Assembly: GCA_964434535.1 (NCBI GenBank)
Contig: CAYSWA010000007.1
Coordinates: 8,321-72,320 of the forward strand
Direction: 5' to 3'
DNA length: 64,000 nucleotides
From: an uncultured candidatus Brocadiaceae bacterium
GTDB lineage: Bacteria; Planctomycetota; Brocadiia; SM23-32
Position 1 is the stretch's first letter. Every line of letters begins with the position of its first letter. The position numbers were made by a program, and so were the translations under genes. The notes under the pieces are model-generated. The model ran no database searches, was not told the origin of the DNA, and saw nothing but the letters and a program-made list of their open reading frames with translations. Of this stretch, positions 802 to 63,059 are shown piece after piece.

Positions 802-1734
802 TTGGAGAAGGCATACGACGTGATCGGCGTCGGCTGCTGCGCCTTCGACCTGGTCATCGAGGTCGACCGCTACCCCGGCGCCGACGACAAGATCATCGTG
901 GACCAGATCCGCACCCAGGGCGGCGGGCTGACCGCCACGGCGCTTGTGGCGGTGGCCCGGCTCGGCGGGCGCTGCGCCTACCTCGGCGCGCTCGGCGACG
1001 ACTACTTCTCGCAGTTCTGCCTGGACGAGTTCGCCCGGGAGGGGGTCGAGGCGCAGACGGTCCGCCGCGTGCCCGGCGCATCGGTCGTGACCGCCCTCAT
1101 CGTCGCCTGCCCCGCGCAGGGCACGCGCATGATCCTGGCCTCCCGTGCGAAGGCCCCGCCGTCGCTCGCCGCCGACGTGCCGGAGGAGGTCGTGCGGGCC
1201 TCGCGGGTCGTTCACGTCGACAACTTCGGCGCCGAGGGGGCCGTCCACGCCGCCCGGCTGGCCCGCGCCTGCGGCGTGCCCGTGACGATGGACCTGGAGC
1301 CGGGCGGGGGCGGCCCCGTCGAGGAGCTGATGGAGCTCGGCGACTACGTCATCGTTCCGGTCGCCTTCGCCCGCGGGCGCTACGGCACCGAGACGGCCGA
1401 GGAGGGCGCCCGTGCGCTGTTCGAAGAGGTGCAGGCCAACGGGGGCGTGGCGGGTGTCGTGACGGCCGGGGCGGAGGGCTCGCACGCCGTCTATGAGGGC
1501 GGGCAGATGAGCCAGCCCGCCTACCGGGCGTCCGTCGTCGACACGACGGGCTGCGGCGACGTCTTCCACGGTGCCTTCGCGCTCGGCCTGGCGCGCGGCT
1601 GGCCGCTGCGCCGAATACTGCCCTACGCGGCGGCGGTCGCCGCCCTCAAGTGCCGGGCCCACGGCGGCCGCGCCGGCATACCCACCGAGGACGAGGTGCA
1701 GGAGTTCCTCGGCGAGGCGGAGCCTTTGACCTGA
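802..1734 (+). CDS. PfkB-family carbohydrate kinase (ribokinase/fructokinase-like)
   Basis: N-terminal VIGVGCCAFDLV glycine-rich motif. C-terminal DTTGCGDVFHGAF is the PfkB signature 2. TTG start with AAGGGGA upstream. Confidence 0.8.
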   Translation: MEKAYDVIGVGCCAFDLVIEVDRYPGADDKIIVDQIRTQGGGLTATALVAVARLGGRCAYLGALGDDYFSQFCLDEFAREGVEAQTVRRVPGASVVTALIVACPAQGTRMILASRAKAPPSLAADVPEEVVRASRVVHVDNFGAEGAVHAARLARACGVPVTMDLEPGGGGPVEELMELGDYVIVPVAFARGRYGTETAEEGARALFEEVQANGGVAGVVTAGAEGSHAVYEGGQMSQPAYRASVVDTTGCGDVFHGAFALGLARGWPLRRILPYAAAVAALKCRAHGGRAGIPTEDEVQEFLGEAEPLT

Positions 1735-1760
1735 CTCCAGGGCGGGGGGACACGGAGAGC

Positions 1761-3140
1761 GTGGCCAGAGAGCGCGTCAGCTACGTCTGCGGCGAGTGCG
1801 AGGCGAGCTTCCCCCGCTGGAGCGGGCGCTGCCCGAACTGCCAGGAGTGGGACACCCTCCAGGAGGTCCGCGAGCGGCCCCAGGGCAAGGGCTCCTTCGG
1901 GAAGCCCGCCGCGCGCGCGGGCGTCGCCGCCACGCCGCTGGCCCAGGTCGAGGCCCGGCGGCTAAGCCGCCTCGGCTCCGACATACCCGAGCTGGACCGG
2001 GTGCTCGGCGGCGGCGTGCTGCCCGGCAGCAGCATCCTGCTCGGGGGCGAGCCGGGCATCGGCAAGTCCACGATCCTGCTCCAGGCGCTCGGCAGGATGG
2101 CCGCGCGCGGGGTGCCGTGCCTCTACGTGAGCTGCGAGGAATCGCTGGGCCAGCTCAAGCTGAGGGCCGAGCGGCTGGGCTTGAAGGACTCGGCGCTGCC
2201 CGTGGCTGCCCAGAGCGACCTGGCGAGCATCCTGGGGCTGATCGCCGCCGGCGAGCTGCGCGTCCTCGTGGTCGACTCGATCCAGCGCGTGCACGCCGCC
2301 GAGCTCGACTCGGCCACCGGCAGCCTGCGGCAGGTGAGCACCTGCGCCACCGGGCTGACCGAGACGTGCAAGGAGCGCGCGATCGCCCTTTTCCTTGTGG
2401 GGCACGTCACCAAGCGCGGGCTGATCGCCGGCCCGCGCGCCCTGGAGCACCTGGTGGACACCGTGCTCTACTTCGAGGGCGAGACGGCCGGCGGCGCGGC
2501 GCTGCGCGTGCTGCGGGCCGTGAAGAACCGCTTCGGCCCGGTCAACGAGATCGGCGTCTTCGAGATGCACAGCGAGGGCCTGCGGGAAGTGAGCAACCCC
2601 AGCGCGCTGTTCCTGGCCGAGCGCGACGCCGACGCCGCCGGCTCCGTGGTCACCGCCACGATGGAGGGCAGCCGCGCGCTGCTGGTCGAGGTGCAGGCGC
2701 TGGTCGGGCCCGGCGCCTACGGCACCCCGGAGCGGAAGGCGAGCGGGATCGACTACCGCCGCTTCAGCATGATGCTCTCGGTGCTGGAGCGCCAGGCGGG
2801 CCTCGAGCTGGGCCGCTGCGACGCCTTCGTGAACGTGGCCGGCGGCGTGCGCGTCTACGAGCCGGCGGCCGACCTGCCGCTGCTTCTCGCGCTGGCCTCC
2901 AGCTTCCGCGAGGCCCCGTTCTTCGCCGACGGCGTGGCCGTAGGCGAGGTCGGCCTCGGAGGGGAGGTGCGCGCCGTCGGCCGCATCGAGGACCGGCTGA
3001 GGGAGGCGCGCAAGCTCGGCTTCGAGCGGGCCGTCGTTCCGGTCGGCAACGCCCCGGCCGCGCGGCGCCTGATGGCCGAGGTCCACGCCGTGCGCAGACT
3101 CACAGACGCACTGAGACTTCTCGGGACGCAAGGCCAGTGA
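1761..3140 (+). CDS. radA: DNA repair protein RadA/Sms
   Basis: YVCGECEASFPRWSGRCPNCQEWDT zinc ribbon, Walker A GEPGIGKST, KNRFG motif, and C-terminal Lon-like domain. GTG at 1761 preceded by GGAGAG. The track ORF start at 1650 is an upstream extension. Confidence 0.85.
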   Translation: MARERVSYVCGECEASFPRWSGRCPNCQEWDTLQEVRERPQGKGSFGKPAARAGVAATPLAQVEARRLSRLGSDIPELDRVLGGGVLPGSSILLGGEPGIGKSTILLQALGRMAARGVPCLYVSCEESLGQLKLRAERLGLKDSALPVAAQSDLASILGLIAAGELRVLVVDSIQRVHAAELDSATGSLRQVSTCATGLTETCKERAIALFLVGHVTKRGLIAGPRALEHLVDTVLYFEGETAGGAALRVLRAVKNRFGPVNEIGVFEMHSEGLREVSNPSALFLAERDADAAGSVVTATMEGSRALLVEVQALVGPGAYGTPERKASGIDYRRFSMMLSVLERQAGLELGRCDAFVNVAGGVRVYEPAADLPLLLALASSFREAPFFADGVAVGEVGLGGEVRAVGRIEDRLREARKLGFERAVVPVGNAPAARRLMAEVHAVRRLTDALRLLGTQGQ

Positions 3141-3251
3141 GGGCGTGCAATCGCCGCCCGCCGTTCGCCGTCGCCGTTGTGCCCGTCCTGTCGTCGTGGT
3201 CAGCACTGCCGGTCTCCGTGTCTGCGTGGTGATTCTCCCGCCGCCGCAAGG

Positions 3252-9584: not shown

Positions 9585-10328
9585 ATGCGGCGTCGCAGGG
9601 CTTTCACGCTCGTCGAACTGCTTGTCGTGATGGCGATCCTGGCCATCTTAAGCGGCCTGATCATGCCGGCCGTCAACGAGGCGCGCCTCGAGGCCAGGGC
9701 CACGAGCTGCCGCAACCGACTGCGGCAGATCGGGTTCGCCACCGAGATGCACACCACCGACCACGGCGGACACCTGCCCGACGCCGGCGACTACACCGGG
9801 CGCCAGTTCTTCGGCCATTACGGCGGGCCCGCCGAGTACGTGGACTTCGGGGAGGGGTTCCTCTCCTCCTACGTCGGCAACGACCGGGATGTCTGGCAGT
9901 GCCCGTCCTTCACGGACTTCTTCCCCCGCGCCCTCGGCCCCTGCACCGGCTACGGCTACAACTACCACTACCTGACGGAGCTGGTCGAGGAGGGCAACTG
10001 GTGGGACCCCGACTACAAGTACTGGTGGAAGGGCCTGCCGGAGGGGAGAATCCGCAAGACCACAAGAACGGTGCTGTTCGGCGACTCCGCCCGCAACTGG
10101 ATGGGGCCGCTTGAGGAGAACTGGTTCTGGACGCCGCCGTCGCAGGCGCTCGCCTGGCCCGGATGGGAGACCGCCTACGCCCACTTCCGCCACCGGCTGA
10201 AGCTGAACGTCGTCTGGGCCGACGGGCACGTCAGCACGCTGCGTCCGGATCCCATCTTCCCGCTCGACCATGACCTGCTCGGCTACATCTGCGACACCTC
10301 GGACGTCTACTTCGATCCGGAGCAGTAG
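9585..10328 (+). CDS. DUF1559 / prepilin-type N-terminal cleavage-methylation domain protein (type II pseudopilin-like)
   Basis: ATG 9585 with AGGAGG 9 nt upstream. N-terminus [22 protein letters not shown] is a class III signal / pilin N-methylation motif. C-terminal WADGHVS is the DUF1559 H-X9-G-type motif. Confidence 0.8.
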
Positions 10329-10437: not shown

Positions 10438-10490
10438 TAAGACGGCCACCGGTAGAATCAAAACTCACAGGTCACCAGGAGGGCTCGGCC

Positions 10491-10901
10491 GTGGCCTATC
10501 GCCGCAGGAAGGTCGTCGCCGTCGTGCTGTTCGCCGGGGCGGCGCTGGGGCTGGCCGGCTTCGGCTTGCTGCGCGGGGGACGCTACGAACAGAGGGGCGC
10601 CGGGCCCGCATCGGAACAAGCGCGGGCCGCCCTGGAGGTGATCCACGCGCTGGCCCGAGAGCCCGAGAGCGTCGCCGACCATCTGCACCCGACCGCCACG
10701 CGGCTGGCGCAGGGAGCCGTAGAGAAGGCCGCCGAGCTGCTCCACAAGGCCGAATCCTACCGCCTGAAAGACGCTGAGTGGTTCGGCGAGTACCTGCGCG
10801 TCGGCGTTCTCTGCGTCCTGAAAGACGGGCGCGAGATGGAACGCTACTTCCTGTTCAGGGAGGAGGGCGGACAGCTCCTCGTCACCGGCCTCCAGCAGTA
10901 G
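10491..10901 (+). CDS. hypothetical membrane-anchored (periplasmic) protein
   Basis: GTG 10491 preceded by AGGAGG and a TAGAAT -10-like hexamer (10452-10457). Hydrophobic N-terminal helix VVAVVLFAGAALGLAGFGLL. No recognisable domain. Confidence 0.5.
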   Translation: MAYRRRKVVAVVLFAGAALGLAGFGLLRGGRYEQRGAGPASEQARAALEVIHALAREPESVADHLHPTATRLAQGAVEKAAELLHKAESYRLKDAEWFGEYLRVGVLCVLKDGREMERYFLFREEGGQLLVTGLQQ

Positions 10902-59917: not shown

Positions 59918-61015
59918 ATGAAGGGCCTGATCGCACTGGAAGACGGGCGGACCTTCGCGGGCGAGTCCTTCGGCGCCGAGGGCAAGCGAGCCGGGGAGGC
60001 CGTCTTCAACACCAGCATGACCGGCTACCAGGAGGCCCTTACCGACCCGTCCTACCGGGGGCAGATCGTCACGATGACCTATCCCCTGATCGGCAACTAC
60101 GGCACGAACCGGCGGGACGTGGAGTCCGAGCGCCCCCAGGTCGAGGGATTCGTAGTCCGCCAGTACTGCCCCTACCCGTCGAACCACGAGGCCGAGTGGA
60201 CGCTCGCCGAGTACCTGGTCCGCCACGGGGTGGTCGCCCTGAGCGAGGTGGACACGCGGGCCTTCACCCGGCACATCCGCCGCGCGGGGGCGATGCGCGC
60301 CGTGATCGCCTCCGGCGATCATGACCCCGACGCGCTGGTGGAGGAGGCCCGCAGCAGCCCCGGCCTGATCGGGCGCGACCTGGTACGCGAGGTGACCTGC
60401 GATGCGCCCTACGTCTTCGCCGAGGGCGAGCCGGGGGCGCTGCACGTGGTGGTCTACGACTTCGGCGTGAAGCGGAACATCCTGCGCTGCCTGGCCGGCA
60501 TGGGCTTCCGCGTCACCGTCGTGCCGGCCGGCACGAGCGCCGAGGAGGCGCTCTCCCAAGGGCCGGACGGGGTACTGCTCTCCAACGGACCGGGCGACCC
60601 CGAGGGCGTGCCCTACGCCGTCGAGGCGACCCGCGGCCTGATCGGCCGGGTGCCGCTGTTCGGTATCTGCCTGGGGCACGAGTTCCTCGGGCTCGCCCTC
60701 GGCGGCGAGATGCGCAAGCTGAAGTTCGGACACCGCGGCGCCAACCACCCCGTCAAGGACCTGCGCACCGGCGAGATCGACATCACCTGCCAGAACCACA
60801 GCTTCAACATCGAGATGGACTCGCTCGACCCCGGCGAGGTCGAGATCACGCACGTGAACCTGAACGACATGACCGCCGCCGGGCTGCGCCACCGCCGGCT
60901 GCCCGTCGCCTCGGTGCAGTACCACCCCGAGGCAAGCGCCGGCCCCCACGACGCCCGCCACCTCTTCGACCGCTTCCGCGAGATGATGCTCGCCGAGCGG
61001 GGGGGAGAGGAATGA
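59918..61015 (+). CDS. carA: carbamoyl-phosphate synthase small (glutaminase) subunit
   Basis: MKGLIALEDGRTFAGESFGAEG...TGYQEALTDPSY. GATase GICLGHEF...QYHPEAS. Confidence 0.9.
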   Translation: MKGLIALEDGRTFAGESFGAEGKRAGEAVFNTSMTGYQEALTDPSYRGQIVTMTYPLIGNYGTNRRDVESERPQVEGFVVRQYCPYPSNHEAEWTLAEYLVRHGVVALSEVDTRAFTRHIRRAGAMRAVIASGDHDPDALVEEARSSPGLIGRDLVREVTCDAPYVFAEGEPGALHVVVYDFGVKRNILRCLAGMGFRVTVVPAGTSAEEALSQGPDGVLLSNGPGDPEGVPYAVEATRGLIGRVPLFGICLGHEFLGLALGGEMRKLKFGHRGANHPVKDLRTGEIDITCQNHSFNIEMDSLDPGEVEITHVNLNDMTAAGLRHRRLPVASVQYHPEASAGPHDARHLFDRFREMMLAERGGEE

Positions 61016-61017
61016 AC

Positions 61018-61482
61018 CACCACGGAGACACCGAGGCACGGAGAACGGCGAAGAAGCGGGATGCCGGCCAGCAGGGCCTGGTGGGCGGAGACGCTGAGCG
61101 AGCAGGTGATCGGGGCGGCTATCGAGGTGCACAAAGCGCTGAGACCGGGCCTGCTCGAGTCCGTATACGAGGAGTGCCTTTGCCACGAGCTTCACTTGCG
61201 GGGCGTGGGTTTCCGCCGGCAGGTGAACCTTCCGGTGGCCTACAAGGGCATCAAGCTGACGAGCGGGCACCGGATGGACGTGGTCGTGGAAGAAACGCTT
61301 GTCGTGGAGGTCAAGGCCGTGCAGGAGCTATTGCCGGTGCACGAGGCTCAACTGCTCACCTACTTGCGCCTTTCGGGGTTTCCTGTCGGGTTGCTGATGA
61401 ACTTCAACGTTCCGGCGCTGAAAGAGGGGATCGTCCGAAAGGTGCTGTAATAATGAACGCCGTTCTCCGTGTCTCCGTGGTG
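61018..61482. mobile_element. 465-bp cassette with 13-bp perfect terminal inverted repeats (CACCACGGAGACA / TGTCTCCGTGGTG) flanked by 7-bp direct repeat AATGAAC; carries one GxxExxY gene
   Basis: TIR-L 61018-61030 and TIR-R 61470-61482. The extended IR includes CGGAGAACGGCG / CGCCGTTCTCCG. Target-site-duplication-like AATGAAC at 61011-61017 and 61483-61489. The interior GC content is lower. Confidence 0.55.
61061..61450 (+). CDS. GxxExxY protein (PD-(D/E)XK-like nuclease fold)
   Basis: [28 protein letters not shown] (GxxExxY motif)...[16 protein letters not shown], the hallmark of the family. 129 aa. Confidence 0.8.
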
Positions 61483-61502
61483 AATGAACCCCGGCAGAAC
61501 AG

Positions 61503-63059
61503 GTGGGGATGAGCCCGACCGAACATGAAGCCGTGGTGGTGCTCGACTTCGGGTCGCAGTACAACCAGCTCATCGCGCGGCGCGTGCGCCAGGCGGGGGT
61601 CTACTGCGAGATCGTGCCGCCCGAGACGAGCGCCGACGAGCTCGCCGCACGGAACCTGAAGGCGCTGATCCTCTCCGGCGGGCCGGCCTCGGCGACCGAT
61701 CCCGGCGCGCCCCGGCTCGATGAGGCGGCGCTGGAGCTCGGCGTGCCGGTCCTCGGCATCTGCTACGGGATGCAGCTCTTAGGGGCGATGCTCGGCGGGG
61801 AAGTGCTGAAGGCCGATTCGCGCGAGTACGGCCCGGCGCGCATCGAGATCGACGAGCCGGACGAGCTGTTCGCCGACCTGCCCGAGGCGCTGGACGTCTG
61901 GATGAGCCACGGCGACCAGGTCAGCCGCATGCCGGACGGTTTCGTGCGCCTCGCCCACACGTCGACCTGCCCGGTGGCCGCCATGGGCGACGCCGACCGC
62001 GGCATCTACGCCGTCCAGTTCCACCCCGAGGTGGTGCACACCCCACGCGGGCCGGACATCTTCCGCAACTTCCTCTACGGGATCGCCGGCTGCGCGGGCG
62101 ACTGGACCATGGCGAGCCTCGTGGAGGAAGCCGTGCGCCGCATCCGCCGGCAGGTCGGCTCCGAGCGGGTCATCTGCGCGCTTTCGGGCGGCGTGGACTC
62201 CACCGTGGTGGCGGCGCTGCTGAATGAAGCCGTCGGCGAGCAGGCCGTCTGCGTCTTCGTCGACAACGGGCTGCTGCGCGCGGGCGAGGCGGAGGAGATC
62301 CGCCGGTTCTTCCGGGACGAATACCCGGTCAACTTCCGGTTCGTCGCCGCCGCCGGCCGGTTCCTCCACGCCTTGGAGGGCGTGGTCGACCCGGAACAGA
62401 AGCGGAAGGTGATCGGGCAAGTCTTCATCGACGTCTTCCGGGAGGAGGCCGAGGAGATCGGCGAGGCCCGCTTCCTGGCCCAGGGGACGCTGTATCCGGA
62501 CGTGATCGAGAGCCGCTCCGCGCACGGCGGCCCGTCCGCCACCATCAAGAGCCACCACAACGTGGGGGGGCTGCCGGACGACCTGGAGTTCGAGCTGATC
62601 GAGCCGCTGCGCGAGCTGTTCAAGGACGAGGTCCGGGCGCTCGGTCGCGATCTCGGGCTGCCCGAGTCCGTCCTCACCCGCCAGCCCTTCCCCGGGCCGG
62701 GGCTGGCCGTGCGCATCGTCGGCGAGGTCACGCCGCAGCGCCTGCGCGTTCTGCGCCAGGCCGACCGGCGCGTCCAGGAGGAGGTCGAGCGCTGGGAGGG
62801 CTACGGCGCGGTCTGGCAGTCCTTCGCCGTGCTGCTGCCGGTGCGCAGCGTCGGCGTGATGGGCGACGAGCGGACGTATGCGAACGTGGTCGCGCTGCGC
62901 ATTGTCAGCAGCGTGGACGCAATGACGTCCGACTGGGTCCGGCTACCGCACGAGATCCTGGCCCGCATCTCCGGGCGCATCATCAACGAGGTGGAGGGCG
63001 TCAACCGCGTCGTCTACGACATCAGCCCCAAGCCGCCGAGCACGATCGAGTGGGAGTGA
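61503..63059 (+). CDS. guaA: GMP synthase (glutamine-hydrolysing)
   Basis: GATase ICYGMQ...QFHPEV. ATP-PPase SGGVDSTV. C-terminal dimerisation domain ending IEWE. Confidence 0.9.
   Translation: MGMSPTEHEAVVVLDFGSQYNQLIARRVRQAGVYCEIVPPETSADELAARNLKALILSGGPASATDPGAPRLDEAALELGVPVLGICYGMQLLGAMLGGEVLKADSREYGPARIEIDEPDELFADLPEALDVWMSHGDQVSRMPDGFVRLAHTSTCPVAAMGDADRGIYAVQFHPEVVHTPRGPDIFRNFLYGIAGCAGDWTMASLVEEAVRRIRRQVGSERVICALSGGVDSTVVAALLNEAVGEQAVCVFVDNGLLRAGEAEEIRRFFRDEYPVNFRFVAAAGRFLHALEGVVDPEQKRKVIGQVFIDVFREEAEEIGEARFLAQGTLYPDVIESRSAHGGPSATIKSHHNVGGLPDDLEFELIEPLRELFKDEVRALGRDLGLPESVLTRQPFPGPGLAVRIVGEVTPQRLRVLRQADRRVQEEVERWEGYGAVWQSFAVLLPVRSVGVMGDERTYANVVALRIVSSVDAMTSDWVRLPHEILARISGRIINEVEGVNRVVYDISPKPPSTIEWE

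Follow-up and report, generated by a model that had tools for sequence, protein, structure and literature searches.

A GxxExxY gene enclosed by inverted tandem-repeat arms at the carA-guaA junction of a Planctomycetota bacterium

The cassette between carA and guaA

The DNA considered here is a stretch of 64,000 nucleotides (64 kb; hereafter the window) from an uncultured candidatus Brocadiaceae bacterium, and its subject is a small cassette in which a 129-aa gene of the GxxExxY (PDDEXK_3) family, at 61061..61450, is enclosed by two inverted repeat arms and lies between carA and guaA. The parts of the cassette and its two host genes are all on the + strand. The upstream host gene, carA, encodes the small subunit of carbamoyl-phosphate synthase (59918..61015, taken from the list of open reading frames (ORFs); domains PF00988 and PF00117; 100% match to P0121). 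The downstream host gene, guaA, encodes GMP synthase (61509..63059); its probable start is the ATG at 61509, which is preceded by AGGTGGGG, and the N-terminus MSPTEHEAVVVLDF aligns with MS..VVVLDF of relatives. CarA is 82-83% identical to CarA of Planctomycetota (82% to that of Planctomycetes bacterium SM23_32), which, going by sequence, places the host in this phylum.

The arms are built of tandem 8-mers. An inverted-repeat scan places the left arm at 61018..61050, where it consists of CAC, three tandem units and ACGGCG: CACGGAGA at 61021-28, CACCGAGG at 61029-36, CACGGAGA again at 61037-44 and ACGGCG at 61045-50. The right arm (CGCCGTTCTCCGTGTCTCCGTGGTG, 61458..61482) is the exact complement of CAC followed by two copies of CACGGAGA and ACGGCG. 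Together they form an inverted repeat with 25 of 25 bases complementary, of the kind expected of the terminal inverted repeats (TIRs) of an insertion sequence (IS) or of a MITE (miniature inverted-repeat transposable element), plus one surplus unit on the left (three units, of which CACCGAGG is degenerate, against two on the right). An earlier annotation made from the letters alone (the first-pass annotation) had put this difference down to an 8-bp indel: the difference in length is there, and it is really the extra degenerate unit. Its placement of the 129-aa gene, the inverted ends, the AATGAAC flanks and the carA stop codon within the left flank was correct throughout.

Outside the arms stands a direct repeat, which the first-pass annotation gave as 7 bp and which is really the 9-mer GAATGAACC. 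The repeat scan finds its left copy at 61010..61018 (core AATGAAC at 61011-61017), enclosing the carA stop codon (TGA, 61013-61015), which stands 2 nt ahead of the left arm, and its right copy at 61482..61490 (core 61483-61489). There is also a third AATGAAC, overlooked at first, inside the unit: it lies at 61452..61458, directly past the stop of the gene, and shares the first base of the right arm, which thus has the 7-mer on both its sides; no model tested explains this third copy. AATGAAC occurs four times in the whole window, three of them at this cassette. A 9-mer direct repeat would arise by chance at about 4e-4 per locus (calculated for two 18-nt flanks), and the repeat may be a true target-site duplication, a chance origin being unlikely. 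At the same time the GTGAAT within the right copy is the usual terminus of the right arm at other loci (CYGTGGTGAAT).

Base composition sets the cassette apart from its neighbours: its G+C content, 0.62, is below that of carA (0.705) and of guaA (0.707), as the first-pass annotation had said of the interior, and G+C at third codon positions is 0.84 in the cassette gene against 0.945-0.96 in the neighbouring genes. On these figures the cassette looks foreign. Neither a sigma-70 promoter nor an intrinsic terminator was found in 60700-61700. An ORF of 166 codons in another frame (61012-61512) begins at the ATG in the left AATGAAC and spans the cassette from end to end; high G+C is its most likely cause.

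That the cassette is an insertion follows from comparison with relatives. The gene order gltB-gltD-carA-guaA(-carB) is kept in four distinct Planctomycetota (L079/L080, L081, L082 and L083; CarA 81-83% identical), in which guaA overlaps the end of carA, starting 17-32 nt ahead of its stop codon, or else follows that codon at 22 nt if the annotated start is taken; in the window the gap between the two genes is 487-493 nt. Because carA and guaA abut or overlap in all four relatives, the content of the gap is, by this sequence comparison, an insertion, as had been proposed, and the cassette is shown to have been acquired by this planctomycete lineage and wedged into the carA-guaA operon junction. 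The empty site with a single AATGAAC, which the first-pass annotation had suggested looking for, was seen in none of the four: their carA-guaA sites hold no AATGAAC, the carA stop region of L081 and L082 reads GATGAGAC and GATGACAC, and the nearest relative is too distant to reveal the sequence before insertion. Since carA and guaA overlap in all relatives, the overlap must stand twice in the window, once as the tail of carA (GAGCGGGGGGGAGAGGAATGA) and once as the head of guaA (ATGAGCCCGACCGAACATGAAGCC). Duplication of the flanks beyond AATGAAC was not significant (p = 0.18), the two copies being too diverged to be detected statistically.

Inverted arms across the GxxExxY family

The protein belongs to a large and widespread family. 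It matches PF13366 (PDDEXK_3; E 2.6e-41, 141.1 bits, cut-off 22) and TIGR04256 (GxxExxY; E 4.9e-44, 149.4 bits, cut-off 35), and a search for the family returned at least 8000 candidates. Family proteins 55-73% identical occur across Acidobacteriota, Planctomycetota, Proteobacteria, Chloroflexota, Nitrospirota and Bacteroidota. In an alignment of 44 sequences 27 residues are invariant, including G30, E33, Y36, D73, E83, K85, Q97 and Y101; the window protein has all 27, by definition, because it serves as the alignment's reference row. These residues make up the motifs G30-L-L-E33-S-V-Y36, D73, E83-V-K85 and Q97xxxY101, which comprise the signature that names the family and the D...E-x-K pattern of PD-(D/E)XK enzymes. 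The predicted fold is of the restriction-endonuclease-like alpha-beta type, and the AlphaFold2 model has a pLDDT (predicted local distance difference test) of 93.6. Foldseek matches to it were weak (I-Bth0305I, E 0.44). Searches found no solved structure or biochemical study of any family member, no PHROG membership and no solved relative by sequence. Matches to Cas4-like proteins in PADLOC were faint, with E-values of 0.004 or worse, and gave no link to a known defence system. Judged from its motifs and modelled fold, the protein is in all probability a RecB/Cas4-type nuclease, active and metal-dependent.

The inverted arms are a trait of the family, and it is on this family-wide evidence, not on the window locus by itself, that the reality of the inverted repeat rests. 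A locus scan with one genome per species gave 77 loci with encoded relatives 37-72% identical, drawn from Acidobacteriota, Planctomycetota, Alpha-, Beta- and Deltaproteobacteria, Desulfobacterota, Nitrospirota, Chloroflexota, Gemmatimonadota, Bacteroidota and others. Inverted arms bracket the GxxExxY gene in 62 of the 75 testable loci. Inverted ends thus recur regularly with such genes, and over 41 flanking contexts. Each arm is made of two to five tandem units of about 8 nt, and the units are of a few types (CACGGAG, CACAGAG, CGCAGAG, CGCGGAG, CACGAAG and CACGGAA, each with 1-3 variable bases added). The outer termini are likewise regular: the left is usually (A)TTCACC or (T)GAACC and the right its complement. 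A regular expression for at least three tandem units matched 162 times in 1.31 Mb of loci and 4 times in shuffles. Two isolates whose genomes are complete, Gemmatirosa kalamazoonensis KBS708 and Bacteroides finegoldii, have the same design, and the arms are therefore not an artefact of metagenome assembly.

The two arms change together. Over 19 terminal pairs in 39 distinct loci, 95.5% of cells were paired and 13 of the 19 pairs had changed on both sides; none of 500 shuffles reached the observed level, and no slid register came close. In the window, the RNA minimum-free-energy fold of the cassette pairs the arms and leaves the whole ORF in the loop (z = -4.45). No unit type is confined to one phylum, each being spread over several, and a single genus can contain several types. 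The idea that the unit type follows the phylum of the host was rejected: protein identity was 59.7% for loci of the same type in different phyla and 58.4% for loci of different type in the same phylum. In one clade of Acidobacteriota and in L065 the arms are flipped relative to the gene. In L016 and L021 gene callers extend the GxxExxY ORF through an arm, giving proteins of 134-139 aa.

Two readings of the arms as known RNA elements were tried and rejected. The GGAG-rich arm might be taken for a Shine-Dalgarno sequence or a CsrA site; many lineages use CACAGAG, CGCAGAG or CACGAAG, and one clade has the arms flipped. A known RNA family is not apparent either: Rfam gave zero matches at E 10 in the window region and zero matches on the arms at the gathering score in 26 loci, the only hits being to the unrelated Acido-Lenti-1. 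Matches to that family (RF01687) above the gathering score stand in L028 (6421-6466) and L025 (10879-10925), 0.9 kb and 8 kb off the cassette, and their sequence is unrelated to the arms.

One locus records an insertion into the gene itself. In L077, from a metagenome-assembled genome (MAG) of Planctomycetia, a palindromic insert of ~130 nt (~10115-10250; columns 316-447 of alignment A1) splits the GxxExxY gene, with GTGTTCGTG as a direct repeat of 9 bp on its two sides. The insert resembles an ordinary MITE and its target-site duplication, lying within a cassette gene.

Placement, turnover and gene-less hairpins

The 78 loci fall into 41 flanking contexts, and the cassettes tend to sit just past a stop codon. 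In 30 of 54 loci the stop of a co-directional ORF (100 codons or more) is found no further than 12 nt from the left arm, as against 3% of random positions, and the loci next to a stop codon represent at least 14 independent contexts. In Bacteroides finegoldii, for example, the cassette begins 1 nt past the radA stop and its right arm ends 5 nt from the next ATG. The largest context comprises 23 Acidobacteriota loci that follow a carboxyltransferase gene ending in ...VGVLQT* (the loci listed for this Carboxyl_trans junction are L002-L006, L008, L009, L013, L016, L021, L024, L025, L029, L033, L034, L038, L039, L042, L071, L076, L078 and L084-L163). Depending on the species, this junction holds one of three types of GxxExxY cassette or a cassette that encodes a four-helix-bundle protein, and in L003, L005 and L009 the arms are nested, one cassette standing within the remnants of another's arms. 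What is seen at the Acidobacteriota junction is turnover of cassettes at a single operon junction.

Several further loci bear on context. L010 and L011 (Alphaproteobacteria) join the Acidobacteriota flank cluster through an upstream gene that is ~70% similar. L008 is labelled Actinomycetota and has the flanks of the Acidobacteriota carboxyltransferase junction (...gagttcaaagttggcgtgttgCAAACATAA); either mis-binning of its contig or transfer of the whole region may explain this. In two Proteobacteria MAGs (L018 and L030) a GxxExxY cassette stands directly downstream of carA, between carA and carB; in L030 (8081-10620) a 249-nt repeat stands three times in tandem upstream, and the stretch from the gene to carB lacks an arm. 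Among the loci examined no transposase recurs beside the cassettes. In L166-L170 the opposite strand carries a DDE_Tnp_1 transposase gene (781-2136 and equivalents) ~360 nt upstream of a cassette that is 73% identical to that of the window; these five P0006 loci appear to be one context in different samples, and it is the only place with this transposase.

Hairpins with the same arms also occur with no gene between them. Such gene-less hairpins, with loops of 4-130 nt, were found in L022, L037, L045, L026, L032, L027, L171 and L173; L022 has four of them among five elements in 20 kb, and Gemmatirosa has a hairpin-gene-hairpin arrangement. In Geobacter metallireducens 21 gene-less pairs of three tandem TCTCCGTS stand between adjacent genes (Aklujkar et al. 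2009, PMC2700814), and the right-arm unit of the window cassette, TCTCCGTG, is that of the Geobacter repeats. A different unit, CACAGATT, makes up two hairpins of like architecture in L040 (3956-4067 and 5346-5461) around a 453-aa ORF, which suggests that there are further unit families, possibly with other cargos.

The window itself holds a second arm. The first-pass annotation had proposed searching for other copies of the TIR and testing each for a GxxExxY gene beside it: a copy exists (TCTCCGTGTCTGCGTGGTGATT, 3213..3234, + strand), and the gene is lacking there. This solo or decayed right arm is identical to 61464-61485 at 20 of 22 positions, terminus included, where shuffles lead one to expect none. 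It lies in the gap between a RadA-like ORF (1650-3140, in which RadA-type domains were found) and the next ORF, has the canonical GTGGTGA terminus, and has a weak partner arm at 3093-3107, inside the 3' end of the RadA-like ORF; its local fold was no better than that of shuffles. The complete cassette of B. finegoldii (L174) stands directly after radA and echoes this position. The recurrence of radA may be a coincidence, or the solo arm of the window may be the remnant of an old cassette.

A proposed IVS-like element and its rivals

The closest parallel to this architecture is found in ribosomal RNA. The 23S rRNA of some bacteria, Leptospira and Coxiella burnetii among them, is interrupted by an intervening sequence (IVS) that can carry an ORF for the protein S23p. 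The Coxiella IVS is 428 nt long and has a 28-bp stem of terminal inverted repeats, an ORF and a variable number of tandem GACAGAT units, and RNase III excises it (PMC4990558). IVSs have long been suspected of being mobile, with a role in mobility proposed for the ORF (PMC4990558). The two kinds of element share a size of ~430-470 nt, a stem of ~25-28 bp, an ORF of ~120-130 aa, tandem repeats of 7-8 nt and variable copy number in or beside the arm, and a patchy distribution that hints at horizontal transfer. For the window cassette an enclosing long stem, as in an IVS, is indicated by the RNA fold and by the covariation of the arms. The differences are as plain. An IVS is hosted by helix 45 of the rRNA, whereas the host transcript of the window cassette is an mRNA (the carA-guaA junction), and no rRNA was found in the window region, in 26 related loci or at loci of the four-helix-bundle family. 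The cargo of an IVS is a four-helix bundle and that of the window cassette a PD-(D/E)XK nuclease-like protein; the units are 7-mers of the GACAGAT type in the one and the 8-mer CACGGAGA in the other; and excision by RNase III, which has been shown for IVSs, is only inferred for the cassette.

A second protein family has arms of this design as well. In L061 (14934-15335) a four-helix-bundle protein (23S_rRNA_IVP / TIGR02436) is encoded within 37-nt arms of tandem 7-mers. A metagenome scan with this protein gave 80 loci, of which 78 were testable, and in all 78 the best flanking inverted-repeat alignment consisted of 7-mers of the type GA[CA]AGT[CT] (z > 8 in 69). The family is named after the ORF of the 23S rRNA IVS, and its members outside rRNA thus carry inverted tandem-repeat arms too.

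Other known systems resemble the cassette in part. The Geobacter pairs were described as 'Class 2 predicted global regulator binding sites' (PMC2700814, Fig. S4, Table S4). They are made of the same repeat, three tandem TCTCCGTS, and occur as pairs on opposite strands with variable spacing, between adjacent genes and also within operons such as pdhA/pdhB; unlike the cassettes, the pairs enclose no gene, and they were read as sites for regulators of the IHF/HU type, with no link drawn to GxxExxY genes, hairpin formation or mobility (PMC2700814). Correia elements of Neisseria, which are MITEs processed by RNase III, are likewise small, bounded by inverted repeats and co-transcribed with host genes as long hairpins. 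Their transcripts are cut by RNase III. They differ in having fixed 26-bp TIRs, a TA duplication and no ORF, whereas the cassettes have arrays for TIRs, an irregular duplication and often a gene. Free-standing and PD-(D/E)XK homing endonucleases (I-Bth0305I, I-Ssp6803I) are also small nuclease genes, patchily distributed at conserved host genes whose frames stay intact; they have no inverted repeat arrays, and the cassettes show no conserved target gene, save possibly carA and radA, which may be coincidental.

The account that we favour, at slightly better than even confidence, is that the window cassette is a horizontally acquired, IVS-like hairpin cassette lodged in an operon junction, and one of a widespread and little-described kind of element. 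Its design places a gene for a GxxExxY protein of ~125 aa (a Cas4/RecB-like PD-(D/E)XK protein) in a hairpin loop; the hairpin is long, and 8-nt tandem repeats in inverted arrays form its arms. Transcription of the cassette together with carA and guaA is probable, and within the message its arms would pair into a duplex of ~25 bp, which, by analogy with the ORF-bearing IVSs of 23S rRNA, could be a natural substrate of RNase III; cleavage there, or the structure alone, would isolate the ORF loop from the host message. Movement would be rare and would not depend on an ordinary transposase. The arms are the sole conserved cis feature and the nuclease is the sole encoded protein, which makes the nuclease the most likely actor: it may act on the DNA of the arms, either recognising a hairpin or cruciform there or using the repeated 8-mers as binding sites, with host recombination and repair finishing the insertion. 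Gene-less hairpins would then be internally deleted or non-autonomous relatives of the cassettes.

Several observations weigh against this account. The scars of insertion are inconsistent and do not point to one integration chemistry for the family: a flanking direct repeat of at least 7 nt is present in only 2 of 47 loci (the window, with 9 nt, and L049, with GAATGAA), and L018 has around its cassette a diverged direct duplication of ~94 nt (9700-9793 and 10454-10550) that comprises the end of carA and the start of carB. This case was found by hand, and long duplications of the flanks were seen elsewhere only in the tandem locus L065. Arm mismatches are without strand bias (38 G:T and 29 A:C), and selection at the level of RNA is therefore inseparable from a constraint on the DNA or from gene conversion between arms. 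Plasmid carriage of the family is nearly nil (7 of 72,556 records). As many as 23 of the 77 loci are one orthologous site, vertically inherited, which means that a cassette is often stable for long; within the 64 kb of the window there are only one gene copy and one solo arm, no arms were found in 42 kb from relatives, and this lineage gives no hint of recent activity. Cleavage by RNase III, nuclease activity and transposition are all inferred here.

The rival nearest to the first-pass annotation makes the cassette a derivative of a classical DNA transposon: a MITE-like, non-autonomous unit moved by a transposase in trans and leaving a target-site duplication of 7-9 bp. It would account for the perfect 13-bp inverted ends, for the 9-bp direct repeat exactly at the junctions, for a left repeat that looks native (relatives have GATGAGAC or GATGACAC at the carA stop), for the empty sites in relatives and for the similar GAATGAA repeat at L049. 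Yet 45 of the 47 loci lack a flanking repeat of at least 7 nt, L018 has its long duplication instead, and in the window the GTGAAT of the right 'duplication' is a normal arm terminus and a third AATGAAC lies inside the unit. Co-varying 8-mer arms are unlike a conserved transposase site. The cassette encodes no transposase, its only ORF product being PDDEXK_3, and none is consistently near, the DDE gene standing upstream only in L166-L170. We regard this derivation as quite improbable. What had been called a textbook insertion signature is not supported, with ends that are tandem 8-mers varying and co-varying in unit and copy number and with direct repeats that the family as a whole does not share. 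For mobilisation of a non-autonomous cassette by a transposase there is no evidence; the other possibility raised at that stage, a selfish element associated with a nuclease, fits better, although it is unproven.

A partnership like that of repetitive extragenic palindromic (REP) sequences, their hairpin-forming doublets (REPINs) and REP-associated tyrosine transposases (RAYTs) would reverse the roles: the gene-less hairpins multiply, and a GxxExxY protein, possibly domesticated, copies or maintains them while its gene is flanked by its own substrates. The systems are alike in their short palindromic repeats scattered between genes and in an enzyme gene flanked by inverted repeats. Gene-less hairpins share the unit type of the resident cassette in L022, L037, L173 and the solo arm of the window, and both the hairpin-gene-hairpin of Gemmatirosa and the 21 gene-less pairs between adjacent G. 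metallireducens genes would fit. RAYTs, however, are HUH enzymes (Y1, of the IS200/IS605 type) and GxxExxY proteins are PD-(D/E)XK; a REP is a single palindrome and the arms are tandem 8-mers. RAYTs are single-copy and vertically inherited, unlike GxxExxY genes, which usually have many divergent copies per genome, cross phyla and spread horizontally. The gene-less hairpins are equally explicable as deletion derivatives of cassettes, and this reading seems to us unlikely. It is just as doubtful, in our view, that the gene is an ordinary accessory gene (for defence or repair, say), acquired horizontally and flanked by regulatory or protective RNA structures that serve as stabiliser, processing site or autoregulatory operator. 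Such a gene would be intact and conserved, as this one is; the long vertical residence at one site in 23 Acidobacteriota loci, the co-orientation of the cassette with host operons, the pairing of the arms as RNA and the weak Cas4-like PADLOC matches all agree with it. Regulatory flanks would not be expected to appear as gene-less hairpins scattered among unrelated genes, to nest, or to recur with an unrelated four-helix-bundle cargo at the very same junction, and the PADLOC matches (E-values of 0.004 or worse) connect the gene to no known defence system. Finally, a chance local hairpin or a carA-guaA terminator has only the intergenic position in its favour. It is rejected, its probability being close to nil, on the family-wide recurrence and covariation, the lack of a T-tract or any terminator call, and the second copy of the arm 58 kb off where none is expected.

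Parts of this picture are already known, namely the rRNA IVS and the Geobacter repeat pairs. Of GxxExxY genes enclosed by inverted tandem-repeat arrays, or of an architecture that they share with genes for IVS proteins, no description was found in full-text searches of the literature, chiefly of journals outside subscription. A broader idea may be put forward tentatively, as a possibility that we would not yet bet on: a single pan-bacterial class of elements, hitherto unrecognised and best called 'operon intervening sequences', could carry either GxxExxY proteins or the four-helix-bundle 'IVS proteins' as cargo; such elements would have inverted arms of 7-8-nt repeats, settle right after the stops at operon junctions, be cut by RNase III or insulated, leave gene-less hairpins behind (as in Geobacter) and be moved by the encoded PD-(D/E)XK nuclease; the rRNA IVS would be the special case that landed in rRNA.

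For the GxxExxY/PDDEXK_3 family, which is among the larger bacterial families of no known function, there is now a concrete genomic anatomy: the gene lies almost always in a co-varying hairpin of 8-mers, just past the stop of the upstream gene. Annotators may wrongly take such hairpins for terminators, regulator sites or transposon ends. The anatomy also connects the 23S rRNA IVS with its S23p ORF, the paired 'regulator sites' of Geobacter and the GxxExxY family, each of which had been described apart from the others, and with it the old question of what IVSs are and how they spread becomes experimentally testable.

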